From the NCBI GenBank assembly GCA_964531335.1, contig CAZHEV010000003.1:130429-194428 (forward strand): DNA of 64,000 nucleotides, read 5' to 3'. This document shows, in pieces, positions 5,671-42,480 of the stretch (position 1 is the stretch's first letter; each line of letters starts with the position of its first letter). A program made the translations under genes and the position numbers. This stretch comes from an uncultured bacterium. Its GTDB lineage: Bacteria > Eisenbacteria > RBG-16-71-46 > CAZHEV01. The notes beneath the pieces were generated by a model, which was given only the letters and a program-made list of their open reading frames with translations, ran no database searches and was not told the DNA's origin.

Positions 5671-7389
5671 ATGTCTGAAAAGATCAGTCACGATCTTCTC
5701 ATTCTGGGCTCCGGGCTCGCCGGACTGCGGGCCGCCGTAGAGGCCCAGCGCTCCAGCGACGGCCGCGTCAACGTGGGCATAATCTCAAAAGTGCAGCTAA
5801 TGCGCTCGCACTCGGTGGCGGCCGAGGGAGGCACGGCCTGCATGCTCAGGCCCGAGGAGGGAGACAGCTTCGATCTCCACGCCTGGGATACTGTCAAAGG
5901 CTCGGACTTCCTGGGGGACCAGGACGTCATCCACCGGTTCGTCCGCGCCATGCCCAACGAGATCCTGCAACTCGACCACTGGGGCATCCCCTGGAGCAGG
6001 ACGGCGGAAGGGCGCATAGACCAGCGCCCCTTCGGCGGTCACAGCTACCCGCGCGCCGTGCTCGCGGCGGACAAGACCGGGTTCTTCGAGATGCAGACCC
6101 TCTACGACAACCTACTGAAGTACGGCAACTTCAATCGGTACGACGAGCTCTTCATAACCTCGATCCTTGTGGAGGACGGCAAGTTCGCCGGGCTTCTGGG
6201 CTTCGACGTCCCGTCCGGCAGGTTCGTGACCCTTCAGGGCAAGGCCCTGATCATTGCCACCGGCGGAGCCGGATGCCTGTACGGCTTCACCACCTACTCC
6301 CAGACCGTGACCGGAGACGGCCTGGCCATGGCCTACCGCGCCGGCCTGTCGCTCGAAGACATGGAGTTCGTCCAGTTTCATCCCACCGGCCTCGCCCCCT
6401 CGGGGATCCTGATAACGGAGGGATGCAGGGGCGAGGGCGGCTACCTGCTGAACGCGGACGGCGATCGCTTCATGGAGAAGTACGCCCCGGAGAAGATGGA
6501 GCTCGCCCCCAGGGATCTCATATCCCGCTCCATGATAACGGAGATCGAGGAGGGGCGTGGGATCGAGGGCGTAGGTGGTTTCGTGCATCTTTATCTGGAC
6601 CTGAGGCACCTCGGGGCGGATAGGATAAACCAGAGGCTGCCGCTGATCAGAGAAGTATGCATAGAGTTTGCCGGCATCGATCCCATCGAGGCGCCCATTC
6701 CCGTCAGGCCGGTCGCCCACTACTCGATGGGGGGCATCGAAACCGACATAGACGGCAGGACCAAGGTGCCCAACGTATGGGTGGCGGGGGAGGCGGCGTG
6801 CGTGAGCCTTCACGGCGCCAACCGTCTCGGCTCCAATTCGACCGCCGAGTGCCTGGTATGGGGAGGCATCACCGGCGCGGAGGCGACCAAGTACATACAG
6901 GGCGGGGCTCACACCACGGAGGCTCCCGAGTCTCGGATCGCCGACGAAGAGAAACGCGTCTTCGAGGGAATCCTGAAGAGCGACGGCCCCGAGAACCCCT
7001 ACGACATCAAACGCGAGCTTCGCGAGATGATGGACGTCAACCTCGCGGTCTTCAGGACGGCCGGGGAGCTCGCGGAGATGGAGGCCAAGGTATCCGAACT
7101 CAATGGGCGCTTCACCGGCATACGGGTTCAGGACAAGCACAGGAGCTACAACTCCAACCTGGTGCACGTGCTGGAGATCCGTAACCTTCTGGATCTCGCC
7201 GAGGTCATGGTCAAAGGGGCGATAGCCAGGGAGGAGTCCCGAGGGGCCCACGCCAGGCGCGACTTCCCGACGAGGGACGATGGTAAGTGGCTGAAGCACA
7301 CGCTGGCCACCTTCACCCCCGAGGGGCCCAAGCTGGACTACAAGGACGTGACCATAAACACCTGGAAGCCTGTCGAGAGGAAGTACTAG
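5671..7389 (+). CDS. sdhA: Succinate dehydrogenase / fumarate reductase flavoprotein subunit
   Basis: FAD-binding GSGLAGLRAAVEA N-terminus, HSVAAEGG, and the conserved C-terminal AHARRDFPTRDD region. Start refined to ATG 5671 (MSEKISHDLLILGSG) with GGGGAGGA RBS 6 nt upstream; the track ORF extends upstream to 5395. Confidence 0.9.
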   Translation: MSEKISHDLLILGSGLAGLRAAVEAQRSSDGRVNVGIISKVQLMRSHSVAAEGGTACMLRPEEGDSFDLHAWDTVKGSDFLGDQDVIHRFVRAMPNEILQLDHWGIPWSRTAEGRIDQRPFGGHSYPRAVLAADKTGFFEMQTLYDNLLKYGNFNRYDELFITSILVEDGKFAGLLGFDVPSGRFVTLQGKALIIATGGAGCLYGFTTYSQTVTGDGLAMAYRAGLSLEDMEFVQFHPTGLAPSGILITEGCRGEGGYLLNADGDRFMEKYAPEKMELAPRDLISRSMITEIEEGRGIEGVGGFVHLYLDLRHLGADRINQRLPLIREVCIEFAGIDPIEAPIPVRPVAHYSMGGIETDIDGRTKVPNVWVAGEAACVSLHGANRLGSNSTAECLVWGGITGAEATKYIQGGAHTTEAPESRIADEEKRVFEGILKSDGPENPYDIKRELREMMDVNLAVFRTAGELAEMEAKVSELNGRFTGIRVQDKHRSYNSNLVHVLEIRNLLDLAEVMVKGAIAREESRGAHARRDFPTRDDGKWLKHTLATFTPEGPKLDYKDVTINTWKPVERKY

Positions 7390-28875: not shown

Positions 28876-30624
28876 ATGGCGCCTCGCACAGCACCGAAAA
28901 CACACGGGGTCCGCTTTCCACCTGGGTCGCGATTCGTCATCGCCGTGGGCGCAGCCTGTCTGATCGCCGCGGCCCTCCTCTCCGGCTGCCGGGGGAACTC
29001 GCCGGAACGCGGCTGGACTATGCTCGGCTACGGCAGCCGGGGCACCAACTTCTATCCCATAGCCTCCGAAGCGGTCGGGCAGGGGTGGAAGCTCCGGGAG
29101 GACACGGGCCTGTCCGTCGGCCACATCAACTACCCTTCGTTCGAGATAGTTGCCGTGCGCGACGGCGAGGACCGGGCTGTGCCCGTGTCGATACACGGCG
29201 CGGAGTGGTCGGGGTGCGAGATCTGGGTGGGGGACAGGGAGGTCCTCAGCGGTGATGGGCTAACCCTCGTCGGCCAGGTGAACGCCGACGGCGGCCCGCA
29301 GGTGGAGCTCGTTCTGAAAAACACATACCACGAGCTGGTGCGCTCCAGCTCCCCCGATTCCCTGCTGGCCATTCGCAATGTGATCATAGCGGGCTTCACC
29401 GACACCCTTATGGCGATGTGCGGCCCGGGGGACAGCCTCGTGGTCCGAAGCGAGCTGTGCTTCGCGGACCTCGACGGCACCGTGGTGAAGCGTATCCCGT
29501 GCAGGGCGGGTGTGAATCGCATCTGTCAGGTCGGCGGGGGGATCCTTGGAAGGCGGGCGGCACTGGTAACGGACCAGTCGTCCTGGCAGGCATCGGACCT
29601 GCTCTACCAGCGTTACTTCAGGGAGGTCTATTCCGCCGGACACGGCCCGATGTACAGGGCTCTTTCGTACAGCTTCGCCGAAGGGATCGCCACGGAGAGA
29701 GGCGTCGCGGCCATCGACCTCGACTCAGGAGAGGAGCTCTGGTTCTACGCCACGGCGAGCTTCCCGTACATGTACGCCGTGCATGACGTCTGCGGGGACG
29801 AGCAGCCGGAGATCCTGCTTGGCTCTTACAGCCCCCACAACTTGATCAATGCGAGCAACATGACCGATCTCGGACATGCTCATGTGATCCTGCTCGACGC
29901 TTACGGCGCTCCGCTGTGGGTCTACACGCTGCCGGGAATCCACATCGGAGCTAGAACGGGCATAGCCCGGTTGGGGACGGGCGCCGAGTACGGAGTTGTC
30001 GTGGCCGCCGGAAACGCCGCCGCCGAGTGGGGGATGCTGGCCGTGCTCGAGCCTTCCGGCGGCGAGGTCATCGCCTTGACGGTGAGCGAGTTCTCCTACA
30101 CCAGCCTTGTAATCGCGGACCTCGACGGGGACGAAGCGGATGAAATAGTGACCGGCACAACGGACGGCCGGTTTCTGGTCCTCAACGGTGACCTGGATGT
30201 GGTCGCCGAGGCCTCGCCGACACCTCCCGATGAGCTCTTCCGGAGGGTATCGTGCTTCGCGCAATGCGCCAACGACATCGACGGTGATGGATCCATAGAG
30301 CTGGTGGGCGCGTGGGCGAAGCTGCGCTTCGAGGAGCCGACCCGCGAGCGATTGATCGCCGGACCCGCCGATACCGCCTCCCTCTGCGTCGGGGTCTTGT
30401 CGCGGGATCTGGAGCTCTTGGACAGCTTCTGGATCGAACCGGAGCGGGGAGCGCCCGCCTTCGCATGGCATCAGCCTCCCGCCTACTTCGCGCGGGTGTG
30501 CGACGTCGACGGCGACCGGGTAAACGACATAGTGACGAGCTACGGCGGCAGGCTGAGGGTCCTCTCGCCGACCCCTCCGCGTGATATGGCAAAGGCGTCG
30601 GCCGGGGAGGTGAGCGCGGATTGA
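28876..30624 (+). CDS. Lipoprotein with FG-GAP/VCBS-like beta-propeller repeats
   Basis: Signal peptide plus lipobox (AVGAACLIAAALLSGC), and repeated DLDGDEADEIV / DIDGDGSIELVG / DVDGDRVNDIV calcium-binding-like motifs. AGGAGAG RBS; TGA overlaps the TTG start of the next gene. Confidence 0.6.
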   Translation: MAPRTAPKTHGVRFPPGSRFVIAVGAACLIAAALLSGCRGNSPERGWTMLGYGSRGTNFYPIASEAVGQGWKLREDTGLSVGHINYPSFEIVAVRDGEDRAVPVSIHGAEWSGCEIWVGDREVLSGDGLTLVGQVNADGGPQVELVLKNTYHELVRSSSPDSLLAIRNVIIAGFTDTLMAMCGPGDSLVVRSELCFADLDGTVVKRIPCRAGVNRICQVGGGILGRRAALVTDQSSWQASDLLYQRYFREVYSAGHGPMYRALSYSFAEGIATERGVAAIDLDSGEELWFYATASFPYMYAVHDVCGDEQPEILLGSYSPHNLINASNMTDLGHAHVILLDAYGAPLWVYTLPGIHIGARTGIARLGTGAEYGVVVAAGNAAAEWGMLAVLEPSGGEVIALTVSEFSYTSLVIADLDGDEADEIVTGTTDGRFLVLNGDLDVVAEASPTPPDELFRRVSCFAQCANDIDGDGSIELVGAWAKLRFEEPTRERLIAGPADTASLCVGVLSRDLELLDSFWIEPERGAPAFAWHQPPAYFARVCDVDGDRVNDIVTSYGGRLRVLSPTPPRDMAKASAGEVSAD

Positions 30625-33233
30625 GACGCCGACTGAGATCTCTCGTCACGCTTTCCCCATATGCTCTCCTGCTCCTTCCCGCGTGCCTTTGTTGCATCTG
30701 CCTTGCCCTGCCGGCCCAGGCCGCTGAAACGCCGGGTCTTTTCTACCGCCGGCTCCCGCCCTTTATCCCCGAGGGCATATCTTCCGCGTGCCTGGTCTCT
30801 TACGGGACGGACCGGCACGCCGTGGTCTGCGCTCTGCGCGACGGATCGCTCCTGGGTATGATCTATCTCTCAAGTGACGACAACTTTCTAATAAACACTT
30901 TTCATGAATGCGACGATCCTGTTCTCGATCTCACCGTATTCGACATGCAGGTTCGAGGAAAGGCGACGAAATGCTTCGCCGGAATAGGAGCCAGGACACT
31001 GCATCTTTTCTCGGGCGATTTCGCCCTTTTGCTCGAAAAGGAGTTCGAGGGCGCCGAAGCGCCGGCTTTCTTCCTACAGGGAGACGCAGGCGGGCGCGGG
31101 CCTGAAAGCCGCTTGTATTTCTGTAGGGGAAGTGCGGTCTATTCGCTCGCGCTGCCGGGACTGAAGGAGGAGCGGATAGCTACGCTGCCGGCGCCCGCCT
31201 GCGCGGCGCGACTGTGCGTGACGGCGGACGGAGAGAGGCTGGCGGTGGGAGTCACGGAGGGAGGAGACCTGTGGACGGTGGACGTCGAACGAGGATCCGC
31301 GCATGTGGAGCCGAGCGGCCTGCGACCTGTTACCGGGTTGGACCGGAGCGATCTGAACGGAGAACGCGAGGGCTTTCCGGTCTGCGTTTTTCGTGACGGC
31401 CACGGCGGGGCCCGCCTGGCCGTCGCTCATCTAGGCGACGCCGGCGGATCGGCGGCGGCGGCCGTGACATGCTTCGCAATATCGCGCGACGGTATGGAGG
31501 AGCTCTGGACGGTGGACTTCCCGGAGGGTCCATGTATCTCCCTAGCCGCAGGGGATTCGGCCCTGTACGCGGGCGGCGGCACCATCTGGAGGGGCGAGGG
31601 CACGGGAGGATGGATACGAAGGTACGGCCTCGATGGAGAAATGGAGCGCGAGCTGCGGGTGCCGTGCCCGGTGGGATATATCCGGCGCGTGGGAGAGACG
31701 ATCTGCGCCCTGGACCGCATCTCCGACGGCGGGCGACACGATAGCTGGTGTCTCACCGTGGCCTCCCCATCGCTCCGGCGCCTCTGGATGGAAAGCTGCG
31801 TTTTGAACCCAAAGGGGATACTCGCGGGGGACATAGGCGGCGACTCGCGGAAGGACATCGTGGTGGTGGGAGACGTGCTGCGCTTCGTCGGGGAGAGGGG
31901 GGTCCAAGGCGAGCGCGGAGAGGTCGACTGCTATATAAACCGGATGGGCGTGCTCGAGAGGATGGCGCAGACCCACGAGGAAAGCGCCGACGACTTATCG
32001 GCGGAGGGCCAAATCCGCGAGGCCGAAGATGCCCTTTCGCTTGCCCGTTCGATCAGATGGTCCCTCGCAGACGAGGACGCCGCGGGGAGGATTGGAGACA
32101 AGCTGGAAGAAATGAGACTTGCCGAGGCCAGGATGGAGCGGCTCGAGACGGTCACCCTCGTAGTCCTGGCGGTCTTTCTCGTGCCGGTCGTATGGAAGCG
32201 CAAGACCATATCCGCGTTGGCGGAGCGGATCGCCGCCGGCCTGTTCCCGGGCTCACGCAAAGAGAAAGCGCTGAGGGAGCCGCCTTCGGTAAGCCTCGTC
32301 CAGTCCGTTCTGGAGTTCCAGCACAGCGGATCCATCAGCAAGGCGCTCACACGCCTCGGCTTCAACCTCGCCAACACGAATCCACGTACCGAACGAGGTC
32401 GCGAGGCCGCCGCGACGGCCGCCGGGCTGGCGCAGAGCTTCGAAGCCAATTTCAGACGCCAGATCGAAGATATAGCTTCGATCATCAACGAGGTCACCAG
32501 GGACGCACCCGGCCATGGAGAGTCGCTGCAACGCTCGCTCGAGGACCGGTTCTCCGATCTGAAGGAAGAGATACCCGTCTTCGTGGATGCCGTGAGCGCG
32601 GGAGAGGGGCTCACGGAGGCGGCATCGCGTCTGGACAACGCCTGTGAGCGTCTCAAGTCCGCGGTCCTGGATGTGGCCAGGGCGGTCAATCGATCGTTCT
32701 TCTGCTCTGTTGGTGACGCCCTGTCCATGGTGCTCGCGAACGAGGAGAGATCGCTGGCCGAAGCCGGGGTGATCGCGAGGGTGCACGATACGAGATCCAG
32801 GGAGCTCGGCGTTGTGATACGTCCCCATCACCTGATATTCGTGCTTCAGAACCTGGTGGAGAACGCCATAAGGGCGATGTCGCAAAGCGAGGAGAAGGTG
32901 TTGTCCGTCACCGTAAGGGTCGAGGGCGTGGACACGGTGGTCGAGGTGAGCGACACCGGAGCGGGAGTGCCGCAGGCGCTGCGCGGGGTGATCTTCGACG
33001 CGGGCGGTTCCCGGGCTCCAAGCGCGGACTCGCGGGGGAAAGGCGGATTCGGTCTGAATCACTCCAGAAAGCTGCTCCAGGAGTACGGAGGATCCGTTCG
33101 TCTCCTGGGCACCTCCTCGTCAAAGGGATCCACCTTCGCCGTCGGGCTAAGGACATGGCCCCGTGGGGCGCCGATCCCCCGGGATGAGGAAAGAAGCTCC
33201 GGTGAAGGGCCGGCGCGCGGGAGGCCGATGTAG
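30621..33233 (+). CDS. Sensor kinase-like protein: large periplasmic beta-propeller-like domain, 1 TM, C-terminal HATPase_c, no recognisable H-box
   Basis: Signal peptide, about 480-aa periplasmic domain, TM helix (LVVLAVFLVPVVW), N-box LQNLVENAIRAM, G1 DTGAGVP, G2 GGFGLNHSR. No HExxTPL-type phospho-His motif seen in the 250-aa linker. Confidence 0.6.
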   Translation: MRRRLRSLVTLSPYALLLLPACLCCICLALPAQAAETPGLFYRRLPPFIPEGISSACLVSYGTDRHAVVCALRDGSLLGMIYLSSDDNFLINTFHECDDPVLDLTVFDMQVRGKATKCFAGIGARTLHLFSGDFALLLEKEFEGAEAPAFFLQGDAGGRGPESRLYFCRGSAVYSLALPGLKEERIATLPAPACAARLCVTADGERLAVGVTEGGDLWTVDVERGSAHVEPSGLRPVTGLDRSDLNGEREGFPVCVFRDGHGGARLAVAHLGDAGGSAAAAVTCFAISRDGMEELWTVDFPEGPCISLAAGDSALYAGGGTIWRGEGTGGWIRRYGLDGEMERELRVPCPVGYIRRVGETICALDRISDGGRHDSWCLTVASPSLRRLWMESCVLNPKGILAGDIGGDSRKDIVVVGDVLRFVGERGVQGERGEVDCYINRMGVLERMAQTHEESADDLSAEGQIREAEDALSLARSIRWSLADEDAAGRIGDKLEEMRLAEARMERLETVTLVVLAVFLVPVVWKRKTISALAERIAAGLFPGSRKEKALREPPSVSLVQSVLEFQHSGSISKALTRLGFNLANTNPRTERGREAAATAAGLAQSFEANFRRQIEDIASIINEVTRDAPGHGESLQRSLEDRFSDLKEEIPVFVDAVSAGEGLTEAASRLDNACERLKSAVLDVARAVNRSFFCSVGDALSMVLANEERSLAEAGVIARVHDTRSRELGVVIRPHHLIFVLQNLVENAIRAMSQSEEKVLSVTVRVEGVDTVVEVSDTGAGVPQALRGVIFDAGGSRAPSADSRGKGGFGLNHSRKLLQEYGGSVRLLGTSSSKGSTFAVGLRTWPRGAPIPRDEERSSGEGPARGRPM

Positions 33234-33267
33234 GGCGAGGACGCCGATGGAAAGAGGGAAACACCTT

Positions 33268-34668
33268 ATGTCCACGCGATTGCTCATCGTCGACGATGAC
33301 CAGGGTTATTTGAACGACCTCATATCGCAGCTCGAGTCCAGGTACGAGTGCCTGGGAGCGAGCAGCCGCGAGCGGGCCTTGGACCTCATGGAGTCTCATG
33401 CCCCGGACGTGGTCGTGACCGACGTCTTTCTCGAGGGCGAGCGTCCGACCGGGTTCGATTTGCTCGTGGAGTTGAAGAAAAGGGATGAGACTCTACCGGT
33501 CGTCCTGATCAGCGAGCGCCATGATCTTTCATTGGTCCTCGAGCTGGCCGTTCAGGGCGGAGGAGTGGAAGGAGACGGATATCTCGGTAAGCCGTTCTCG
33601 GTGGAGGAGCTCGAAGACAGGATCGAATCCGCCTTGCGCATGAGGAGGGCCGCCGAGGCCTTGGCCCGTCAGAGCGCAGGCCCCGCGGACACGGAGATAG
33701 TGGCCGCCGGCGCGTCCATGCAAAGGGCGATGAGAATGCTGGAAACGTACGCCCCCACCGATGCGACGGTGCTCCTGTTGGGAGAGACGGGCACGGGAAA
33801 GACGCTGTTGGCCAGGGAGCTGCACAGGCGCAGCAGAAGGGCAAGGAAGGCGTTCATAGAGGTGCAGTGCCCCAACCTGCAGCGAGAGCTCGTAAGGAGC
33901 GAGCTCTTCGGGCACGAGAAAGGCTCCTTCACCGGAGCCGGGGAGAGAAGCAAGGGGCGCTGCGAGATCGCGGACGGGGGCACTCTGTGCCTGGAGGAGA
34001 TCGGCGACCTCGAACCGGGCGTACAGGGGTGCCTGCTTAGGCTCCTGGAGGAAGGGGCCTTCGAGCGCGTCGGGGGCGGCGCGACGATCAACGTCGATGT
34101 CAGAGTGATAGCGGTGACCAACGTCGACCTGGAGGAACAAGTGAGGCGGGGCGCTTTCCGCAAAGACCTCTACTACAGATTGAGCCAGTGCCCAATAACG
34201 ATCGACCCGCTGCGAGAGAGAAAGGAGGACATCGAGCCCCTTGCCCGTCGCTTCCTGGACATGTACTGCAGGAAATACTCCGTCATGGTCGAAGGCATAA
34301 GCGCAGATGCCATGGACATGATGCGCGCCTACGAATGGCAGGGCAACGTCCGCGAGCTCGATCACATAATGATGCTCTCCGTCATGAACAGAAAGGCGTC
34401 GGGGAGCACGGGAGAGCTGCGTCCCGAGGAGCTCAGAATAGGTGAGTCGAGCCTCGAGGGCCGGTCATCCCGAATGACATATGATGATCTCAAAGAACAT
34501 CAGCTCCAGGAGTCGAGGAGATACTTCTCTGGGGTTCTCGCCCAAGCCGGCGGCGACGCCGCGAAGGCCTCGAGGATCGCGGGGATACCGCGAGGGAGCC
34601 TTTACCGCAAGTTGAAAAGTCTCGGGATCAGTCCCGGCAAAGGCGGCGGCAAAAGCGTGACGGATTAA
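33268..34668 (+). CDS. Sigma-54-dependent response regulator (NtrC family: REC-AAA+-HTH)
   Basis: REC (LLIVDDDQ...VVVTDVFL), Walker A GETGTGKT, GAFTGA-like GSFTGA, ESELFGHEKGSFTGA, and a C-terminal Fis-type HTH. AGAGGGAA RBS before ATG 33268. Confidence 0.85.
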   Translation: MSTRLLIVDDDQGYLNDLISQLESRYECLGASSRERALDLMESHAPDVVVTDVFLEGERPTGFDLLVELKKRDETLPVVLISERHDLSLVLELAVQGGGVEGDGYLGKPFSVEELEDRIESALRMRRAAEALARQSAGPADTEIVAAGASMQRAMRMLETYAPTDATVLLLGETGTGKTLLARELHRRSRRARKAFIEVQCPNLQRELVRSELFGHEKGSFTGAGERSKGRCEIADGGTLCLEEIGDLEPGVQGCLLRLLEEGAFERVGGGATINVDVRVIAVTNVDLEEQVRRGAFRKDLYYRLSQCPITIDPLRERKEDIEPLARRFLDMYCRKYSVMVEGISADAMDMMRAYEWQGNVRELDHIMMLSVMNRKASGSTGELRPEELRIGESSLEGRSSRMTYDDLKEHQLQESRRYFSGVLAQAGGDAAKASRIAGIPRGSLYRKLKSLGISPGKGGGKSVTD

Positions 34669-34930
34669 CCCGCTCCGCGCCCGGCCGTCGCCCCGAGCCG
34701 CGCTTCCTGTCACATTTCCGCGATTTGATTCTCGCCATCGTGAATCCCGTAACCTTTAGACCCCCATGTAAATAGAGAATTCGCTTTCCCGCGCCGTCAC
34801 CGAGTTGAGAATCCCGGCCGGCGCGGGGCATGGCGGCAGCGACGACCGCGCGCCGGCTTCACCTCCACATCTTCATGTAGCACAGGCAGTAGCGTCGATG
34901 CACGCCTTTGCGCCCGCGGCGAAGGTCCGG

Positions 34931-34946
34931 TGGCACGGCTGGTGCA
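34931..34946 (+). promoter_or_regulatory. Sigma-54 (-24/-12) promoter upstream of the stand-alone receiver gene
   Basis: TGGCACG-gctg-GTGCA versus consensus TGGCACG-N4-TTGCA (one mismatch). About 70 nt upstream of the REC ORF and about 260 nt downstream of the NtrC-family activator gene. Confidence 0.55.
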
Positions 34947-35015
34947 AAGGATGGGGTCGGTTGTGGCTGCATGGGCTGCGTGTGCTTCGTAATGTCCTCC
35001 GACTAGCGGGAGGTT

Positions 35016-35417
35016 ATGGGGTTGTACGGTTCAGGAGATCAGAAGCTCATTCTGCTGGTGGACGACGACAGCGGGTTCCACAGGGACTTCGCTGCCATGC
35101 TCTCACCCAAATACCGCCTCCTGAGCGCGTACAACCCCTCGGAGGCCCTGCGGCTCGCCAAGATCGAAACGCCGTACGTGGCCCTCATGGACTTGCACCT
35201 GCCGCTGACGACCGCCGGATACGAGTACTCCGCGGGGCTCGAGCTGCTCGAGGAGATGCACAAGGTCACCTACGGCGAGCTTCCCATCATAATGCTGATC
35301 GACTGCGATATAGAGCATGGACTGTGCGAGCACATTCTGACCAGAGCCAGGGGCATCATCAAGAAGCCGAGGGAGATGAAGGCCCTGCTGGACGAGATGG
35401 AACGGTGCCTGGGGTAG
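35016..35417 (+). CDS. Single-domain response-regulator receiver (CheY-like) protein
   Basis: LILLVDDDSGF...VALMDLHLP...IIMLID. 133 aa with no output domain. Confidence 0.65.
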   Translation: MGLYGSGDQKLILLVDDDSGFHRDFAAMLSPKYRLLSAYNPSEALRLAKIETPYVALMDLHLPLTTAGYEYSAGLELLEEMHKVTYGELPIIMLIDCDIEHGLCEHILTRARGIIKKPREMKALLDEMERCLG

Positions 35418-35440
35418 TTGGGTAGACTGGATAGGCCGCG

Positions 35441-35487
35441 CCCCGCCGGGTGCGCTTTCGGCGAATTCCGGCGGGGTTGTTTTTTTC
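35441..35487 (+). terminator. Candidate intrinsic terminator after the REC gene
   Basis: CCCGCCGG ... CCGGCGGG inverted repeat followed by GTTGTTTTTTT. The loop is long (about 18 nt). Confidence 0.4.
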
Positions 35488-35489
35488 TC

Positions 35490-35518
35490 TTGACGGGCGA
35501 ACATATGTTCGGTATCAT
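35490..35518 (+). promoter_or_regulatory. lexA promoter with embedded Cheo-type LexA box
   Basis: -35 TTGACG (35490-35495), 17-nt spacer, -10 TATCAT (35513-35518). The perfect palindrome CGAACATATGTTCG (35498-35511) matches CGAACRNRYGTTCG, lies in the spacer and overlaps the -10. Confidence 0.7.
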
Positions 35519-35556
35519 ATGTATAGTCTGAATCGTGAAGGAAAGAAGGGCTTGCA

Positions 35557-36174
35557 ATGAAAGAGCTTACAGATCGGCAGAGGGACGTTCTCGATGTGAT
35601 TCTCTCCTCGGTGGGGGAGACCGGGCGCTTTCCCTCCTACAGGGAGATAGGCCGGGAGCTGGGCATGAGCTCCGTGGCCACGGTCGGCCAGCACATGGAG
35701 GCCCTCGTGGCCAAGGGAGCCCTCAGAAGGGACGGCGACCTCCTTGCGGTGAATCCTGCCCTGAGGGGCGACAAGGGGATCCCCATAGTGGGCCGGATCG
35801 CGGCCGGCGCCCCCATAACGGCCATCGAGCACCTGGAGGGGACATTGGACCTGGCGGGAATCGTAGGCCGCGGGGGGACACACTACGCCGTGAGAGTAAA
35901 GGGCGACAGCATGGTCGAGGCGGGTATCCACGGGGGAGATCTGGTCGTGGTGCGCCTTCAGTCGACCGCCGAGAGCGGCGACACGGTTGTCGCGTACCTC
36001 GGCGAGGAGCAGGAGGCGACGGTCAAGGTTCTCTACAAGCGCAGATGGGGTTACGAGCTTCAGCCCCGGAACGCGGATTACGAGATCATAAAGATAAGGA
36101 GAGACGATCCTCACTTCCGCCTGGGCGGGAAAGTGGTGGCCGTGGTGAGGAAGCTGTCGGGCAAGAAGGTATAA
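35557..36174 (+). CDS. lexA: LexA repressor (SOS regulator, S24 peptidase)
   Basis: N-terminal wHTH (LTDRQRDVLDVI...YREIGRELGMSS), AG cleavage site (IAAGAP), catalytic Ser (KGDSM) and Lys (VKVLYKR). Confidence 0.9.
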   Translation: MKELTDRQRDVLDVILSSVGETGRFPSYREIGRELGMSSVATVGQHMEALVAKGALRRDGDLLAVNPALRGDKGIPIVGRIAAGAPITAIEHLEGTLDLAGIVGRGGTHYAVRVKGDSMVEAGIHGGDLVVVRLQSTAESGDTVVAYLGEEQEATVKVLYKRRWGYELQPRNADYEIIKIRRDDPHFRLGGKVVAVVRKLSGKKV

Positions 36175-36180
36175 CGGGAA

Positions 36181-36435
36181 ATGCAGGTAGAGCACTTGAA
36201 CGAAGCGATCAAGGTAAGGGCGGATTTTCAAGGCGGCAGGATCGTACCGCTCGTCTTCAAGCGGAAGGACAAGAACTACAGGGTGACGCAGGTCAACGCC
36301 GCCTGGGAGGACAGGGAGGGTACGCAAAAGCTCTACTTCTTCTCCGTGACCGCCGACAGCGGAGACGTCTATCAACTGCGATTGAGCGGCAAGGACATGA
36401 CCTGGTATGTCGACCTGGTGATGATGGAGGGGTAG
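36181..36435 (+). CDS. Hypothetical 84-aa protein inside the lexA-polIV-dnaE2 cassette
   Basis: ORF begins 7 nt after the lexA stop on the same strand (MQVEHLNEAIKVRADFQGGRIVPLVFKRKDKNYRVTQVN...). No family recognised. Confidence 0.45.
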   Translation: MQVEHLNEAIKVRADFQGGRIVPLVFKRKDKNYRVTQVNAAWEDREGTQKLYFFSVTADSGDVYQLRLSGKDMTWYVDLVMMEG

Positions 36436-36662
36436 CGGGAGCGGACGGGAGCCACCCACCGTGACTGATTGATTCCGTTCCTGGCTTCTGTCCCACCGGC
36501 CCCCCATCGTCGCCGGGCGCACGGAGCGACCGCGGATCCGAGCGCGTCGCCGAGGATCTCTCCCGCCTTGTGCCGGGCCGGAAAGCCTGGTCATGGCCTC
36601 CGGCGAGATCCGGCTTCGTTCTGAAGTCATAAGCTATCTCTTCCTCCATAAGGGCCCCCTGA

Positions 36663-37865
36663 ATGAGCTCGTCGATAATGCACGTGGACATAGACGCCTT
36701 CTTCGCGTCCGTAGAGCAGCTGCGCAATCCGTCCCTTCGCGGCCGGCCCGTCATCGTGGGGGCCGGCGTGATAGCGAGCTGCTCCTACGAGGCGAGGCGT
36801 TACGGCCTCAAGGCCGGGATGCCGTTGCGCGAGGCGATGCGGCTGTGCCCGGGCGCGGTGATCCTGGACGGCCACGCGCAGGTCTATCGCTGCTTCGCCG
36901 AGCGGGTGTTCGACGTGTGCCGGGAGATCGCGCCGGGCGTTGAGACGCACCTGGACGAGGCCTACTGCGACCTCGGGGGGACCGCGGCTCTCTATGGTGA
37001 CGCGGTCCGCGCCGGCGAGAGGCTGCGCCGGGAGGTCGAGCTGCGGGTGGGCCTTTCGGTGACCGTGGGGCTCGGCGGCAACCGCATGATCGCGAAGCTG
37101 GCCGGGACGACGGTGAAGCCGGGCGGGGTGAGGGTCATAGAGGACGGGCGGGAGCGCGAGTTCGTGGAGGGGATTCCCGTGCGGGATATCCCCGGCGTGG
37201 GCCGCGCGAGGGCGGAGGTGCTTCGAAAGCTCAACGTTCGGACCGCCGGCGACCTGGCGGCCTTTCCGCTTCCGCACCTTCGCATGCTCTTCGGCCGAAA
37301 CGGCGAGGTGCTCTACAGGCGGTGCAGGGGATCGGACGGCGGCCTGCTCGACAACGAGATCCCCAAGTCCATTTCCAGGGAGACCAGCTTCCAGCACGAG
37401 ACGGGGGACCGGGGCGAGATAGAGGGAACGTTGCGATATCTCGTAGGGCGCGCGGCCAGGACGCTGCGTGGGCTGGCGCTCTCGGCGCGAACCGTCTCCG
37501 TCAGGGTGCGGTACGCGGACGGCGAGGGCCGGGAGAGGGCGCGCACGATGCCCCGACCGGCGCGTCTCGACACGGAGCTGTTCGAGCTGTGCCTCTCCTT
37601 GGTCGGGCCGATGCTGGAGCGCCGGTGCGGGCTGCGCCTGGCCGGCGTGTCGCTGTCCTGTCTCTGCCGGGGGTCGGCTCCGCAGGGGGATCTGTACGAA
37701 GAGAGCAGGTCGTTCCGGGAGGCTGAGCTGTGCGGCGGCCTGGACAGGGTGCGCGATCGTTTCGGACACGGCGCCGTCGTGTCGGGGCGTGCTTTATATC
37801 TTATGGGCAAGGTAAAGAGGGACAGATATGGATATATCCTACGCACCCCTTCGCTTACGAAGTAA
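36663..37865 (+). CDS. dinB: Y-family DNA polymerase (Pol IV/DinB-like, catalytic residues intact)
   Basis: HVDIDAFFASVE (catalytic Asp pair) and HLDEAYCDL (Asp-Glu) conserved as in E. coli DinB D8/D103/E104. 3' end overlaps dnaE2 by 38 nt. Confidence 0.75.
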   Translation: MSSSIMHVDIDAFFASVEQLRNPSLRGRPVIVGAGVIASCSYEARRYGLKAGMPLREAMRLCPGAVILDGHAQVYRCFAERVFDVCREIAPGVETHLDEAYCDLGGTAALYGDAVRAGERLRREVELRVGLSVTVGLGGNRMIAKLAGTTVKPGGVRVIEDGREREFVEGIPVRDIPGVGRARAEVLRKLNVRTAGDLAAFPLPHLRMLFGRNGEVLYRRCRGSDGGLLDNEIPKSISRETSFQHETGDRGEIEGTLRYLVGRAARTLRGLALSARTVSVRVRYADGEGRERARTMPRPARLDTELFELCLSLVGPMLERRCGLRLAGVSLSCLCRGSAPQGDLYEESRSFREAELCGGLDRVRDRFGHGAVVSGRALYLMGKVKRDRYGYILRTPSLTK

Positions 37866-40800
37866 CTACTCGCTCCTGGCCGGCACCATGACGCTCGAGG
37901 AGATCGTCGAGCGCGCCTGCCGGATGGGCCTTGGCGCGGTCGCGCTTACCGATATCAACAATCTCTACGGCGCGGTGAGGTTCCAGGAGCTGGCGCGGGC
38001 GCGAGGGCTCAAGGCGATCGTGGGCGCGGAGCTGCGCGCGAAATCGGAGGCGGCCACGCTGTTGGCCAGGGACGGGGAAGGCTACGCGAACCTCTGTCGT
38101 GCCCTGACGCGCCTTCACCTGGGACGGGATGCGGCGGCTGAGGCGGACGCCGCGGGCGAAGAGGCCCCGTTGGAGGGGCTTCTCGAGGGCGGCGCGGGTG
38201 GTCTTTACTGCATGGTGGAGGAGCCGGCTCTCGCCGAGCGGCTGTTGGGTCTTTTCCCGCGCGAGCGCCTGTGGCTCGAGCTTGCCGGCCCCGGCAGGGC
38301 GTCACGGGTCTGGGAGCGTAACGTTCGGGCGGCGCGCTCTATGGGAGTCGGCGTGGTGGCGACGGGGGAGGCGTGGTTCGGCGCCGCCGAGGACTGGGCG
38401 CTCCACAGGGCCCTGCGGGCCGTGGCCGGGAGGACCCTCGTCCAGCGGGCGGGCGCGGTGGAGGGAGTCGCTCATCCCAACGCCTACATGGCCACGCCGG
38501 CCCAGATGACCAGGCGGCTGGGACGGCTGTCCTGGGCTTTGGAGGAGTCGGCGCGCATCGCGCAGGACTGCGACGTGACGCTGGAGAGCGGGGGGCGCGT
38601 CTTTCCGGCCTGCGCGCTGGAGCCCGGCGAGACGGCGCGCTCCAGGCTCACGCGGATGTGCCGTGAGGGGCTCAGGACCCGCTACGGGCCGTCGCCGGGC
38701 CACCGGGTGCGCAGGAGGCTGGAGAGGGAGATCGAGGTAATAGACAATCTCGGCTTCTGCTCTTACTTCATAGTCGTGGGCGAGATCGTGGCCTGGGCCA
38801 GGGGGCGTGGGATAGCCGTGCTGGGCCGGGGCTCCGGAGCGAGCTCCCTTGTTGCGTACCTGCTCGGCATCACCGGAGTGGACCCGCTGCGCTACGGCCT
38901 GGTGTTCGAGCGGTTCATGAACTCGCGAAGGCCGGACTACCCGGATCTGGACGTGGACCTGTGCTGGCGGCGGCGTGACGAGGTAATAGATCACGTCTAT
39001 GAGAAATACGGAAACGACAGGGTAGCGATGATCTCCACTCATGTGACTTTTCAGAAGCGCTCGGCGGTGAGGGAGATGGCGAAGGTGTGGGGCCTCGCGC
39101 CTGATGATCTCCTGAAGACCTTGAGAGAATGGGAGCGGATGCGCGAAAGGGGGCACGGCGCTGCCCTGGAGGGCCGGGGCGGGCCGCTGTCAAGGGAGCC
39201 CCTCAGGACCGCCCTGGCCATGGCGCGCAGGGTGCAGGGCTTCCCGAGGCATATCGGGATTCATTGTGGGGGGCTCGTAATCGCGCCGGGGCCGCTGGCC
39301 GAGATGGCGCCGCTGGAGCGCGCGCCCAAGGGGGTCGTCGTCACGCAGTACGAGATGGACGCGGTGGAGAGAGTGGGCCTTGTGAAGATGGACCTGCTGG
39401 GGAACCGGGGCCTGACGATGGCGCAAGAGTGCATAGAGCTGGCGGCGTCGCGCGAAGGCCGCGCGGAAGGGGACGGCGCTCCGGGCGACGCGCGCGCCTG
39501 GCAGGGCGCGGGCCGGGCGGGCGGCGATCGTTCCCGCGGTGACGGGTCCGCGCCGGATGGCGGTTCGGGCCGGGCGGCGGCGGGCGCCGGCGTACGCGGC
39601 GTGCCCGCGAGCATGGAAGACATACCGGACGGCGACGCGAAGGCCGCGGAGCTCTTGCGTGCGGGCGATACGCTGGGTTGCTTCCAGATCGAATCCCCCG
39701 CCATGCGCCGGCTGCTGTCGATGATCGAGCCCGAGGGCTCGGACGAGGTGATCGCGGCGGTGGCGCTGGTGAGGCCGGGACCTTCGGGATCCGGTATGAA
39801 GGACGTATTCATAAGGCGGAAGCGCGGCCTCGACAGGACGAGATTCACGCACCCTTGCCTCGCTCCGGTGCTCAAGGATACCTACGGGGTGATGCTCTAT
39901 GAGGAGGACGTCCTCAAGGTTGCGGCGGTCGCGGCCGGGCTTCCCCTCGAGGACGGCGACGATCTGCGACGCGCGATGGTCGAGGCCGGCCGGGGCCGAG
40001 AGCTGTCCGAGGTCCGGCGGGGGTTCTTGGAGCGCGCCGCGCGCAGGGGGGTTGACGCAAAGGCGTCCAGGGCGTTGTGGGAGGATCTGTCCAGGTTCTC
40101 TTCATATGCCTTCTGCAAGGCGCACGCCGCGGGCTACGGGCTTCTGGCGTATCGTACTGCATATCTCAAGGCACACTACCCGGCCGAGTACGCCTCCGCC
40201 GTGCTGAACAACCATGCCGGAATGTACCCGACTAGGGTGCACCTCGAGGACGCCCGGCGCCGGGGGATCGGGATAATCGGGCCCTGCGTCAACTCGTCCG
40301 GCGCGGGGTTCACCGTCGAAGGAGGAGCGATCCGCGTGGGGCTCAACCGGATCAGGGGCCTCAGGGCCGCCGCCGTCGATGACATAATCACGGCCAGGAA
40401 GGAGGGCGGCGCCTTCAGGTCCTTTTCGGACCTCCTGGCCCGTGCGGCACTGTCGTCGCCGGAGGCCGAGGCGCTGGCGCTGGCCGGCGCGCTGGACTTC
40501 ACCGGAGCGGCGCGACCGGCCCTTCTTCTGGAGGCGCTCGCGTGGTCGAAGGGCAGGGGGGGCCGGCACGCGGCGGGGCGGCCGCTTCTGCCCGATCTCG
40601 GACTGACCGCGCCCGTTCCGGGGATGCGCGAGTTCGACCCCGGGCTGCGCGCGGAGATGGAGGCACGGCAGCTCGGGCTCACGCCGAGTCGCCATCCGGT
40701 CGAGGACCGGCCGGCTCCGGCGGGTTCCGGCGCACGCGGCGCCGGGCAGCGCTTGACGACGTGCGCGGGGCTGAAGGCGCGGGTGGGCCGGCGTGCCGCG

Positions 40801-41091
40801 ATCGTGGGCGTGGTGTCGGCCCGCAGGCGCATTCGGACCGAGGGCGGGGAGGCTATGCTATTTCTCACAATAGAGGACGCGACCGGGCTCGTGGAGGTGG
40901 TGGTGTTCCCCCACGCGTACAGGCGGGTGCGGGTCGATCTCGACGGCAGGGGGCCTCTGTGTGTGACCGGAAAGGTGGAGGACCACTACGGGGCGCTGAC
41001 ACTGGTGGCGGACGCTGTCGTAGCGGCGGGCCGGATGGAGGACCGCGACTCGGCTACGCGCGGATCCTGTGCGCCGTGGGGAGGAGGCTGA
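37828..41091 (+). CDS. dnaE2: Error-prone DNA polymerase III alpha-family (DnaE2 / ImuC)
   Basis: 1087 aa with a PHP domain N-terminus (MDISYAPLRLRSNYSLLAGTMTLEEIVERA), LVKMDLLGNRGLT and GDTLGCFQIES polymerase motifs. Size and SOS context are typical of DnaE2 rather than replicative DnaE. Confidence 0.75.
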   Translation: MDISYAPLRLRSNYSLLAGTMTLEEIVERACRMGLGAVALTDINNLYGAVRFQELARARGLKAIVGAELRAKSEAATLLARDGEGYANLCRALTRLHLGRDAAAEADAAGEEAPLEGLLEGGAGGLYCMVEEPALAERLLGLFPRERLWLELAGPGRASRVWERNVRAARSMGVGVVATGEAWFGAAEDWALHRALRAVAGRTLVQRAGAVEGVAHPNAYMATPAQMTRRLGRLSWALEESARIAQDCDVTLESGGRVFPACALEPGETARSRLTRMCREGLRTRYGPSPGHRVRRRLEREIEVIDNLGFCSYFIVVGEIVAWARGRGIAVLGRGSGASSLVAYLLGITGVDPLRYGLVFERFMNSRRPDYPDLDVDLCWRRRDEVIDHVYEKYGNDRVAMISTHVTFQKRSAVREMAKVWGLAPDDLLKTLREWERMRERGHGAALEGRGGPLSREPLRTALAMARRVQGFPRHIGIHCGGLVIAPGPLAEMAPLERAPKGVVVTQYEMDAVERVGLVKMDLLGNRGLTMAQECIELAASREGRAEGDGAPGDARAWQGAGRAGGDRSRGDGSAPDGGSGRAAAGAGVRGVPASMEDIPDGDAKAAELLRAGDTLGCFQIESPAMRRLLSMIEPEGSDEVIAAVALVRPGPSGSGMKDVFIRRKRGLDRTRFTHPCLAPVLKDTYGVMLYEEDVLKVAAVAAGLPLEDGDDLRRAMVEAGRGRELSEVRRGFLERAARRGVDAKASRALWEDLSRFSSYAFCKAHAAGYGLLAYRTAYLKAHYPAEYASAVLNNHAGMYPTRVHLEDARRRGIGIIGPCVNSSGAGFTVEGGAIRVGLNRIRGLRAAAVDDIITARKEGGAFRSFSDLLARAALSSPEAEALALAGALDFTGAARPALLLEALAWSKGRGGRHAAGRPLLPDLGLTAPVPGMREFDPGLRAEMEARQLGLTPSRHPVEDRPAPAGSGARGAGQRLTTCAGLKARVGRRAAIVGVVSARRRIRTEGGEAMLFLTIEDATGLVEVVVFPHAYRRVRVDLDGRGPLCVTGKVEDHYGALTLVADAVVAAGRMEDRDSATRGSCAPWGGG

Positions 41092-41124: not shown

Positions 41125-42480
41125 CTAGACTATTCTGCCGCTCACGGACATCTCCGAGATCTTGACCGTGGGACTGTTCACGGGGCCGCGAAACTTCAGG
41201 TCGTCTCCGATCATCTCGACGCCGGACAGCATATCGAGGCTGTTGGAAGCCATCGTGAGCTCGTGTACGGGGGCCCCCAGGGCCCCGTCGGAAATCCACA
41301 CGCCCGCCGCCTCGTAGGAGTAGTCCCCCGTGTTGCCGTTGAATCCGAAGGCGCCGGTGTTCATCACGTACAAGCCGTTCGATATGCCGGCTATTATCTG
41401 TTCGGGAGTGGTCCCGCCCGGCTCCAGGTACAGATTGTGGTATCCTATACCGGGAGGGGAATCGTAGCCCCGAGACGCGTTGCCCGTGGAGCGGACTCCG
41501 GCGCGGCGGGCGGAGTAGGTGTTGTAGACGAACCTCTTGCAGACCCCCGTGTCTATGAGGTTGGCCCTGCCGGTTGGAACGCCCTCGGCATCGAAGGGCG
41601 AAGTGCCGGCGCCCTCGGGCAAGAGCCCGTCGTCCACCAGATTGACCAGGGGTGAGCCTATGGTCTGGTCCAACTTGTCGCTGAGGAAGCTCGTGTTCTT
41701 CAGGACCTCCTCCCCGTCCAGGCAGTAGAACAGGCTGGCTATCCAGTCCGAGGCCACGTCAGGGCTGAGGACCACAGGCACGCGCTGCGTTCTCACGCTC
41801 TTCGCGCCGAGAAGCGATACGGCCCTTCGCGCGGCTTCTCGCCCCACGTCCTCGGCGCTTTCGGTCTTTGACTTGGCCCGCGCCGAGGAGAAGTAAGCGC
41901 CGGATTGCATCTGGCCGCCCGAGTCGGAGGCGACCAGCGCCGCCACCAGCACGCACCCCGTCGAACGAAAGCCGACCGAGCGGCCCTCCGAATCCGCAAG
42001 CACTACGAGGTCCTCCCCGACCGAGTAGCGGCAGGCGTCGGTGCTTCTTATCCTCTTGTCCATCGAATAGGCGGCCTTCTCCATCGCGAGCGCCTGGGAG
42101 ATAGCCTCCTCGGGAGAGGTTCCGGCCGTAGAAGGATCGTACAGGCCCATCTCATCCGGCGCGAAGGAGAGCCCGACTTCCTCGGGAAGGCCGTTCGCCT
42201 CGTCAGGCGTGCCACTTGCCGCGAGGAAAGCCGCCTTCTCCGCGAGAACCTTCAGCGACTCCGCCCTGAAGTCGGAGCTGAATGCGAAACCCTGCCTGGA
42301 CCCTTTGATGACCCTCAATCCCAGGCCCACGGGATTGGCCTGTAACAGATTTTCGACCTTTCCCGCGTTCACGGAGGCGGTCAACCTTCGCGATGCGGTC
42401 AGAAACACCTCGGCCTGATCGCATCCGGCTCGCTTGGCCTCATTCGCGCACTTTGCGGCCAACTCGGTGTATTCTTTCAT
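41125..42480 (-). CDS. pmbA: PmbA/TldE-family metalloprotease
   Basis: About 450 aa with PmbA_TldD-family C-terminal region (HELTMASNSLDMLSGV). GGGAGG RBS; ATGA overlap with tldD. Confidence 0.75.
   Translation of the reverse strand: MKEYTELAAKCANEAKRAGCDQAEVFLTASRRLTASVNAGKVENLLQANPVGLGLRVIKGSRQGFAFSSDFRAESLKVLAEKAAFLAASGTPDEANGLPEEVGLSFAPDEMGLYDPSTAGTSPEEAISQALAMEKAAYSMDKRIRSTDACRYSVGEDLVVLADSEGRSVGFRSTGCVLVAALVASDSGGQMQSGAYFSSARAKSKTESAEDVGREAARRAVSLLGAKSVRTQRVPVVLSPDVASDWIASLFYCLDGEEVLKNTSFLSDKLDQTIGSPLVNLVDDGLLPEGAGTSPFDAEGVPTGRANLIDTGVCKRFVYNTYSARRAGVRSTGNASRGYDSPPGIGYHNLYLEPGGTTPEQIIAGISNGLYVMNTGAFGFNGNTGDYSYEAAGVWISDGALGAPVHELTMASNSLDMLSGVEMIGDDLKFRGPVNSPTVKISEMSVSGRIV

Follow-up and report, generated by a model that had tools for sequence, protein, structure and literature searches.

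An SOS-type operon from an uncultured Eisenbacteria-like bacterium predicted to encode a split-ImuB translesion-synthesis complex with two polymerases

The DNA considered here (positions 130,429 to 194,428 of contig CAZHEV010000003.1, from an uncultured bacterium of the Eisenbacteria lineage) is a stretch of 64 kb, referred to below as the window, and its main region (35438-41091) is one block of same-strand genes bounded on both sides, in which lexA is followed by a gene for an 84-amino-acid (84-aa) protein, by polY, encoding a Y-family polymerase, and by a gene for a C-family polymerase designated dnaE2 (Table 1). A preliminary description made from the sequence had proposed that these four tightly linked genes form an SOS mutagenesis cassette departing from the classical imuA-imuB-dnaE2 arrangement, and that the 84-aa protein may be a new accessory factor of the mutasome. 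The present analysis covers the identities of the genes, their catalytic residues, the family to which the 84-aa protein belongs, the operator and how far the gene order is conserved, and it identifies the small gene as imuB-C, encoding a protein of the known standalone ImuB-C family. Gene order, strand, coordinates and the 38-nucleotide (38-nt) overlap of polY with dnaE2 were all as first described, and the imuB-C ATG follows the end of the lexA stop codon by 7 nt; the tight linkage fails at one point, where a spacer of 227 nt parts imuB-C from polY. This spacer matches no Rfam family and its fold is unremarkable (z-score -0.66), and among relatives the distance between the two genes ranges from 3 to 4720 nt with a median of 153. 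Scans of the whole window returned no Rfam match and no tRNA, and no rRNA is present.

Table 1. Features of the lexA-imuB-C-polY-dnaE2 region, in coordinates of the window.
Feature	Position	Strand	Remarks
Terminator-like GC-rich hairpin with U-run	35438..35486	+	fold of 35436-35489: -27.9 kcal/mol
Sigma-70-like operon promoter, TTGACG-17-TATCAT	35490..35518	+	10/12 matches
Predicted LexA operator, perfect palindrome CGAACATATGTTCG	35498..35511	+	GAAC-N4-GTTC type, within the promoter spacer
lexA	35557..36174	+	205 aa
imuB-C, standalone ImuB-C protein of GSU0042 type	36181..36435	+	84 aa, six-stranded beta protein
Intergenic spacer	36436..36662	+	227 nt, without recognizable element
polY, DinB-like Y-family polymerase with C-terminal extension	36663..37865	+	400 aa
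Beta-clamp-binding-like pentapeptide QGDLY	37683..37697	+	PolY aa 341-345
RecA-N-terminus-like motif REAELCGGLDRVRDRFGHGAVVSGRAL	37716..37796	+	PolY aa 352-378
PolY C-terminal tail YGYILRTPSLTK	37827..37862	+	PolY aa 389-400
dnaE2-like C-family polymerase gene	37828..41091	+	1087 aa

The product of lexA scores 156 bits against TIGR00498 (cutoff 111), contains the Pfam domains LexA_DNA_bind and Peptidase_S24, and displays an Ala-Gly cleavage site (RIAAGAP), the serine of a GDSM motif and the lysine of a TVK motif, the roles of which are known from E. coli LexA; it is predicted to be an autocleavable SOS repressor. Both the perfect palindrome and the sigma-70-like promoter whose spacer contains it, as first described, were recovered, and this promoter is the only promoter-like site found between 35200 and 41400. 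The exact form CGAAC-N4-GTTCG occurs once in the 64 kb, against 0.08 expected, with at least one match in 8 of 100 shuffled sequences, and allowing one mismatch adds four matches, which is the level of chance (5 found versus 3.2 expected). With a LexA that passes TIGR00498 and a palindrome in the promoter of its own gene, the description of the locus as a LexA-controlled SOS mutagenesis cassette stands, LexA binding and induction by DNA damage being predictions for this operon.

The 84-aa open reading frame (ORF) is a real gene. A word-indexed search gave 44 homologues of equal length in a 90%-clustered collection, which removes the early doubt that it might have none, and an exhaustive profile search extended the family, at E<=0.001, to 613 cluster representatives, almost all with a length of 80-90 aa. 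Against the closest relative the ORF has 19 synonymous and 7 non-synonymous codon differences, with 22 of 30 base changes at third positions, and its AlphaFold2 model is a confident six-stranded all-beta structure (predicted local distance difference test, pLDDT, 94.8), in agreement with the remark in the preliminary description that the protein has no recognizable RecA fold. Foldseek matched this model to no PDB entry at E<=0.001, the best E being 0.26, as would be expected of a novel fold, and comparison of the sequence profile with PDB chains returned only chance SH3 matches, with E of 0.1 or above.

What the protein is was indicated by comparison with the ImuB-C superfamily, which was defined by Aravind et al. 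in 2013 on the basis of small proteins like GSU0042, whose genes lie between lexA and dinB, and was linked to the C-terminal domain of ImuB, its members being all-beta with a conserved C-terminal Trp and basic residues (PMC3765255). Published models treat ImuB-C as the C-terminal beta-barrel of ImuB in detached form (PMC6511836, PMC12926913), and those made with AlphaFold 3 (AF3) show it as a barrel of novel fold touching the DnaE2 PHP domain (PMC12926913). Using reference sequences from the supplementary tables of PMC12926913, the hidden Markov model (HMM) of the family matched GSU0042 of Geobacter sulfurreducens over its full length (71.9 bits, P 1.9e-24), the ImuB-C proteins of Calditerrivibrio (59.4 bits) and Herbinix (21.4 bits), and five other published standalone ImuB-C proteins with per-sequence P of 3e-7 to 7e-5; profile-profile alignment with hhalign against the same five gave a probability of 95.2% (E 2.5e-8). 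In pairwise alignment with GSU0042 the window protein has 32% identity over 79 aa (blastp, E 9e-11 in a 4-sequence database). W75, K11, R13 and R28 are invariant in 27 sequences of the family, and W75 and P23 in 62 more diverse ones, a pattern that fits the published hallmarks of ImuB-C (PMC3765255). Membership of the GSU0042-type standalone ImuB-C family is thus established by profile comparison.

General annotation resources capture this family only in part. Pfam DUF6504 (PF20114) scores the window protein at 18.1 bits (E 0.0032), below its gathering threshold of 24.2, yet 40 of 62 members of the family reach E<=0.01 with it, the best at 1.4e-7, and some relatives carry the NCBI name "DUF6504 family protein"; the window protein is therefore assigned, from these scores, to a divergent subfamily related to DUF6504. 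The actinobacterial ImuB-C proteins VEP41449 and QBR94233 match the same model at E 1e-13 and 1e-16, and NCBIfam holds no model for the 84-aa protein. As for ImuB itself, the window protein obtains 9.3 bits (P 4.9e-5) from a profile built on 117 ImuB C-termini, a score reached by 1 of 2000 shuffled sequences, and a transitive link is provided by the ImuB-C proteins of DnaE2X-type systems, which match the ImuB profile with P of about 1.5e-6.

Conservation of the gene order was followed in a comparative set of 67 species-level loci that encode relatives of the 84-aa protein, obtained from a scan with one genome per species; most are metagenome-assembled genomes of Candidatus Eisenbacteria, with several Planctomycetota (Brocadiia, Kuenenia, Phycisphaerales), and the window proteins are 55-65% identical to those of the closest species representatives. 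Of 58 evaluable loci, 48 carry, 3' of imuB-C and in the same orientation, a polY with the same C-terminal tail, and lexA precedes imuB-C within 1 kb in 22 of 60. The proposed co-occurrence of 84-aa homologues with dnaE2 is also seen among these relatives, dnaE2 lying downstream in 24 of 44 evaluable loci. The complete architecture of the window, lexA-imuBC-polY-dnaE2, recurs in 8 loci, imuBC-polY-dnaE2 without lexA in 20, imuBC-polY only in 8 and lexA-imuBC only in 7. An overlap of polY with dnaE2 (about 35 nt) is found again in L021, L045, L061 and L065, and its conservation implies translational coupling of the two polymerases.

Between imuB-C and polY of L001/L012 (Candidatus Eiseniibacteriota, CALOCN010000001.1, 8255-8929) lies a called 224-aa "gene" that was considered as an analogue of ImuA; it was rejected, having no Pfam match, an Arg/Gly/Ala-rich low-complexity translation and repeated self-matches in tblastn, which suggests a repeat-rich insertion rather than a protein. 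Insertions of 0.5-4.7 kb separate the two genes in several further loci of the set.

Neither imuB nor recA was found in the 64-kb window, and a tblastn search of it with two ImuA proteins and RecA gave no match below E 0.9, so that the separate imuA considered possible in the preliminary description is absent from these 64 kb. A match to ImuB at 6985-7245 (29% identity) is spurious, since it lies antisense to a gene for a succinate-dehydrogenase flavoprotein. The absence of imuA from the 64 kb, together with an intact Y-family polymerase, sustains the early view that the cassette differs from the classical imuA-imuB-dnaE2 type.

Upstream sequences in the relatives fall into more than one type. 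In about 11 related loci CGAAC-N4-GTTCG(G) precedes the lexA that is linked to the cassette, and a close variant does so in 2 others (13 in all), whereas a second palindrome, TGCAC-N4-GTGCA, stands 30-220 nt upstream of imuB-C in 23 of 43 loci that lack lexA, as against 1 of 25 with a linked lexA, often within the spacer of a TTGAC...TAnnnT promoter. Matches to it number 44 in 832 kb, 25 of them in 16.6 kb of upstream sequence, and none occurs in the 64-kb window; the 23 loci are L011, L019, L020, L022, L025, L026, L028, L033, L035-L037, L041, L043, L046, L047, L049-L051, L055, L056, L059, L062 and L069. Since its geometry equals that of the window palindrome while the half-sites differ, these sequences suggest that in the lexA-less relatives the cassette may be controlled by a different LexA. 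TGCAC-N4-GTGCA resembles the LexA box of Fibrobacter succinogenes. In a further group of Eisenbacteria (L012, L016, L018, L023, L030, L034) a third motif, approximately TACTCATGTGTTTGGTA, is located about 50-70 nt 5' of imuB-C in place of both palindromes, and in the Kuenenia/planctomycete loci L066 and L067 repeated TTAGTAT...TAGG elements are found upstream instead.

The Y-family protein contains the domains IMS, IMS_C and HhH, and its core aligns throughout with solved structures of DinB and Dpo4 (E 8.5e-53 to 1e-40). The motifs HVDIDAFF and HLDEAY (D9, D11, D98, E99) fall on the catalytic Asp and the Asp-Glu pair of these polymerases and are conserved in all 48 orthologues extracted, confirming the observation that it keeps the acidic residues of DinB; PolY is accordingly predicted to be a catalytically intact, active DinB-like polymerase. 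Its similarity to Cupriavidus ImuB is no more than weak and local (25% identity over 277 aa, E 0.004). The last 60 residues of PolY hold three conserved elements. The first is the pentapeptide QGDLY, a putative beta-clamp motif judged by the QL[SD]LF consensus, and this column reads Q-x-x-L-F in most orthologues (QGALF, QMDLF). The second, of the RecA-N-terminus-like class defined in PMC6511836, is conserved as LDRVRDRFGHGAVVSGRAL in all 48 orthologues, and in two alignments inspected its profile finds its best, if weak, match at the N-terminal oligomerization segment of RecA. The third is the C-terminal tail, whose consensus G[FY][VI]LRTP[SC]LT[KR] varies very little among the 48 orthologues. 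In the window the 12 codons of this tail (37827-37865) overlap the first 12 of dnaE2 (MDISYAPLRLRS, including the degenerate PHP motif), which are read in a different frame. The tail is kept also where dnaE2 is absent or the two genes do not overlap, hence its conservation is not merely a by-product of the overlap.

The 1087-aa polymerase contains the domains PHP, DNA_pol3_alpha, finger, HHH_6 and OB, and its polymerase aspartates are present (PDLDVD at aa 371-376, and MDLLG). On the other hand its PHP site is degenerate, the first HxH being RLR (the N-terminus reads LRLRS, not LHVHS), its OB fold (992-1063) is followed by about 24 aa to the end of the protein with no tau-binding domain, and an internal clamp motif of the QxxxF type was looked for in the protein and not found. 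A low-complexity insert of about 60 residues, rich in Gly, Ala, Arg and Asp, lies between the palm (NTPase) and the finger at aa ~545-605 (~39460-39640) and is skipped by the Pfam domain matches. The N-terminal 400 aa are closest to DnaE of a Desulfosarcina plasmid (38%) and to DnaE2B of Treponema caldarium (32%, 180 bits), with 174 bits to DnaE2A of Cupriavidus, and they resemble DnaE2B of the actinobacterium Tessaracoccus in patches only. The plasmid in question is the mobilizable Do28_1 of Desulfosarcina ovata (L074, NZ_AP021877.1, 2333-8108), on which lexA, a DUF72 gene, a Y-family gene and the closest plasmid-borne relative of the window DnaE2 (36-38%) are present; in its Y-family protein, annotated "hypothetical", the catalytic DE is replaced by FV and the C-terminus is RecA-N-terminus-like, so that from its sequence this locus appears to be a system of the inactive-PolY/DnaE2B kind carried by a mobile element.

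Upstream, the GC-rich hairpin (z -3.3, with an equally good fold in 2 of 200 shuffles) is directly followed by the run TTGTTTTTTT; it terminates the upstream response-regulator gene (35016-35417) and sets the 5' boundary of the cassette transcription unit. Downstream the border is a convergent PmbA/TldD pair starting at 41125. The neighbors at 30621-35417 are a histidine-kinase-like protein of 870 aa, a sigma-54-dependent response regulator (33163-34668) and the stand-alone receiver encoded at 35016-35417, and between these signaling genes and the SOS cassette no tie is evident. Two long antisense ORFs on the minus strand, of 371 aa (35515-36630, over lexA and imuB-C) and 380 aa (36627-37769, over polY), have no support as genes and are the usual artefact of high G+C.

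Taken together, we read the locus as an SOS operon that is autoregulated by LexA and encodes a "split-ImuB" translesion-synthesis complex, a reading to which we would give roughly three chances in four. For the physical contacts and the order of action this scheme follows published AlphaFold models and work on ImuA-ImuB-DnaE2. In undamaged cells LexA would sit on CGAACATATGTTCG in the promoter spacer and repress lexA-imuBC-polY-dnaE2; upon DNA damage RecA filaments would trigger the self-cleavage of LexA, and the operon would be expressed. PolY would be the active, organizing subunit, binding the beta clamp and recruiting through its C-terminal extension a RecA protomer that stands in for the absent ImuA. 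ImuB-C would have no catalytic part and would serve as the adaptor between PolY/RecA and the DnaE2 PHP domain, in trans, as the C-terminal domain of ImuB does in cis, and its docking site could conceivably be the nearly invariant tail of PolY. DnaE2, whose PHP site is dead and which lacks both a tau-binding tail and a recognizable clamp motif, would need PolY and ImuB-C as a scaffold in order to gain access to the clamp where a primer end has stalled. Given the fact that both polymerases look active, a division of labor is plausible, in which PolY likely inserts opposite the lesion and DnaE2 extends.

A number of observations weigh against this scheme. The spacer of 227 nt means that co-transcription of imuB-C with polY is assumed, the motif in the PolY extension matches RecA weakly (P 0.002-0.07), and the direct hhalign comparison with the true C-terminal domain of ImuB is weak (E 0.016-0.043, probability below 3%), although collinear over 68 columns. 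The contacts of standalone ImuB-C all come from modeling and none from experiment. The 1087-aa protein falls below both NCBIfam cut-offs, with 645 bits against the error-prone model PRK05672 (939) and 706 bits against the replicative model PRK05673 (1002), so that its status as DnaE2 rests on architecture and context. Lastly, pairs of lexA and imuB-C without a nearby polymerase occur in about 7-10 loci, and polymerase-free contexts of this kind imply that the role of ImuB-C may exceed that of a DnaE2 adaptor.

Such pairs (at least 7 loci with no polymerase within reach) also favor a different role, in which ImuB-C would be a damage sensor, a DNA-binding module or an SOS regulator working with LexA or with several repair systems, the polY/dnaE2 context being one of many. 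Standalone ImuB-C is likewise encoded beside genes for Ku/ligase, SplB photolyase, SRAP and metallopeptidase, and recognition of DNA damage has been proposed for it (PMC3765255); moreover, three of its invariant residues, Lys11, Arg13 and Arg28, are basic. We nevertheless consider such a role unlikely, given the position of polY 3' of imuB-C in most loci, the confident contacts that ImuB-C makes in AF3 models both with PolY/RecA and with the DnaE2 PHP domain (PMC12926913), and the covalent fusion of the same domain to the Y-family module in ImuB. The apparently polymerase-free pairs may moreover have their polymerase at a somewhat greater distance, since polY is found only some 5 kb downstream of the lexA-imuB-C pair in L031 and L057.

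The higher score of the 1087-aa protein with the replicative model, along with the many relatives that have imuB-C and polY and lack dnaE2, could also mean that it is the replicative Pol III alpha or a second copy of the replicative type, with the SOS unit reduced to lexA-imuB-C-polY as in Geobacter. This is very improbable, for the score is about 300 bits under the replicative cut-off, the His-x-His of the PHP site is replaced by Arg-Leu-Arg, the tau-binding domain is missing, and no clamp motif was found inside the protein. Furthermore, the gene starts inside the tail of polY, an overlap conserved in other loci, and the closest relatives of its N-terminal region are a DnaE from a plasmid lexA-PolY-DnaE operon and a DnaE2B. 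That the 84-aa protein is a previously unknown mutasome factor replacing ImuA, a view favored by its position upstream of the Y-family gene (the site of imuA in classical cassettes), its sub-threshold DUF6504 match and the lack of an NCBIfam model, can no longer be upheld for an all-beta protein clearly homologous to GSU0042 (71.9 bits) and to other published ImuB-C proteins (hhalign, 95.2%), whose family and operon contexts were published in 2013, 2019 and 2026 (PMC3765255, PMC6511836, PMC12926913), and the notion that it fills the ImuA slot falls with it, the role of ImuA being assigned in published models to RecA. The split-ImuB complex thus stays the preferred reading of the locus.

Much of this composition is already on record, namely the ImuB-C family, its operon contexts and the combination of four parts, DnaE2 with active PolY and ImuB-C (+RecA) being a named system in the 2026 survey (PMC12926913). 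Among complete genomes the four-part DnaE2-PolY-ImuBC-RecA composition was reported from Actinobacteria only (PMC12926913), and its range is here extended to uncultured Eisenbacteria- and Planctomycetota-like lineages, among which it is widespread. New as a combination of modules is the pairing of a Geobacter-type ImuB-C with a DnaE2 unlike the actinobacterial one, and new as well are the two operator types, CGAAC-N4-GTTCG(G) where lexA is linked and TGCAC-N4-GTGCA where it is not. If there are indeed at least two operator types, the cassette would be a natural system for studying the co-divergence of LexA duplicates and their operators. For standalone ImuB-C, partnership with mutagenic polymerases has been a prediction since 2013, and the present loci support the split ImuB as a common and probably ancestral design. 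A compact set of proteins of 84, 400 and 1087 aa, with RecA and the clamp, could serve to reconstitute a mutasome with two active polymerases. When a short "hypothetical" gene stands between lexA and a dinB-like gene, annotators would do well to compare its product with ImuB-C, since the GSU0042-type subfamily is missed by Pfam DUF6504 and by NCBIfam.

Compared with the canonical ImuA-ImuB-DnaE2 system (Pseudomonas, Mycobacterium, Caulobacter; compared here through the Cupriavidus plasmid locus L075), the window has in common an SOS-linked Y-family protein, an ImuB-C barrel and DnaE2. The canonical ImuB, however, is a dead protein of ~490 aa with ImuB-C fused at its C-terminus, whereas in the window PolY is intact at 400 aa and imuB-C is a separate gene upstream; the window DnaE2 is ~30% identical to DnaE2A of Cupriavidus. 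The PolY2-DnaE2 operons of Bacteroidetes (Cellulophaga algicola) resemble the window in combining two apparently active polymerases in one SOS-type operon and differ from it in having no ImuB-C gene. There are also the "split ImuB" DnaE2X-iPolY-ImuBC-RecA systems (Sphaerobacter, Dehalogenimonas, and lexA-imuY-dnaE2 of Deinococcus deserti), which like the window have a separate ImuB-C, a Y-family protein and dnaE2, often with lexA, RecA being presumed to replace ImuA in both. Their Y-family protein is inactive and that of the window appears catalytically intact from its residues; their ImuB-C is closer to the C-terminus of ImuB (P ~1.5e-6, ImuB1-C profile) and scores ~9-10 bits against the window family profile.

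The gene order of the window is shared by lexA-GSU0042-dinB of Geobacter sulfurreducens (PMC3765255, PMC6511836, PMC12926913), in which lexA, imuB-C and an active polY follow each other as in the window. Operons of this lexA-imuB-C-polY type, with an active "GeoPolY-like" polymerase, are known from deltaproteobacteria, Deferribacteres and Planctomycetes (Timinskas and Venclovas, 2019; PMC6511836), and that of Geobacter has been reported to be damage-induced and transcribed as one unit (PMC6511836). The ImuB-C proteins belong to the same subfamily, and the two PolY proteins are 32% identical over 383 aa, each with a clamp-type peptide, a RecA-N-terminus-like segment and a terminal tail, although the tail reads ...ISPAWRP... 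in Geobacter and ...LRTPSLTK in the window. They differ further in the LexA operator (GGTT-N10-AACC in Geobacter versus CGAAC-N4-GTTCG) and in dnaE2, which is absent from the Geobacter operon and overlaps polY in the window. Tentatively, one may suppose that in Eisenbacteria- and Planctomycetota-like lineages a Geobacter-type lexA-imuB-C-polY operon captured DnaE2 and so gave rise to a two-polymerase mutasome independent of the actinobacterial one, in which the PolY tail would dock ImuB-C, a contact that would be the non-covalent precursor of the ImuB fusion. If so, the capture would contradict the argument of 2019 that an active PolY makes DnaE2 unnecessary (PMC6511836).

In composition, finally, the counterpart is the DnaE2B-PolY-ImuBC-RecA system of Actinobacteria (Tessaracoccus lapidicaptus, PMC12926913). 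It shares with the window an apparently active PolY with the RecA-N-terminus-like motif, through which, in published models, RecA is bound and takes the role of ImuA (PMC6511836, PMC12926913), as well as a standalone ImuB-C, a DnaE2 that in the window, too, probably lies outside the ImuA/ImuB-associated clade, and the absence of imuA, for the window from its 64 kb. Its ImuB-C, on the contrary, belongs to the core of Pfam DUF6504 (52-61 bits) and scores 15-17 bits against the window family profile, and since both the actinobacterial ImuB-C and DnaE2B differ from those of the window, the two systems are probably independent assemblies of the same modules.

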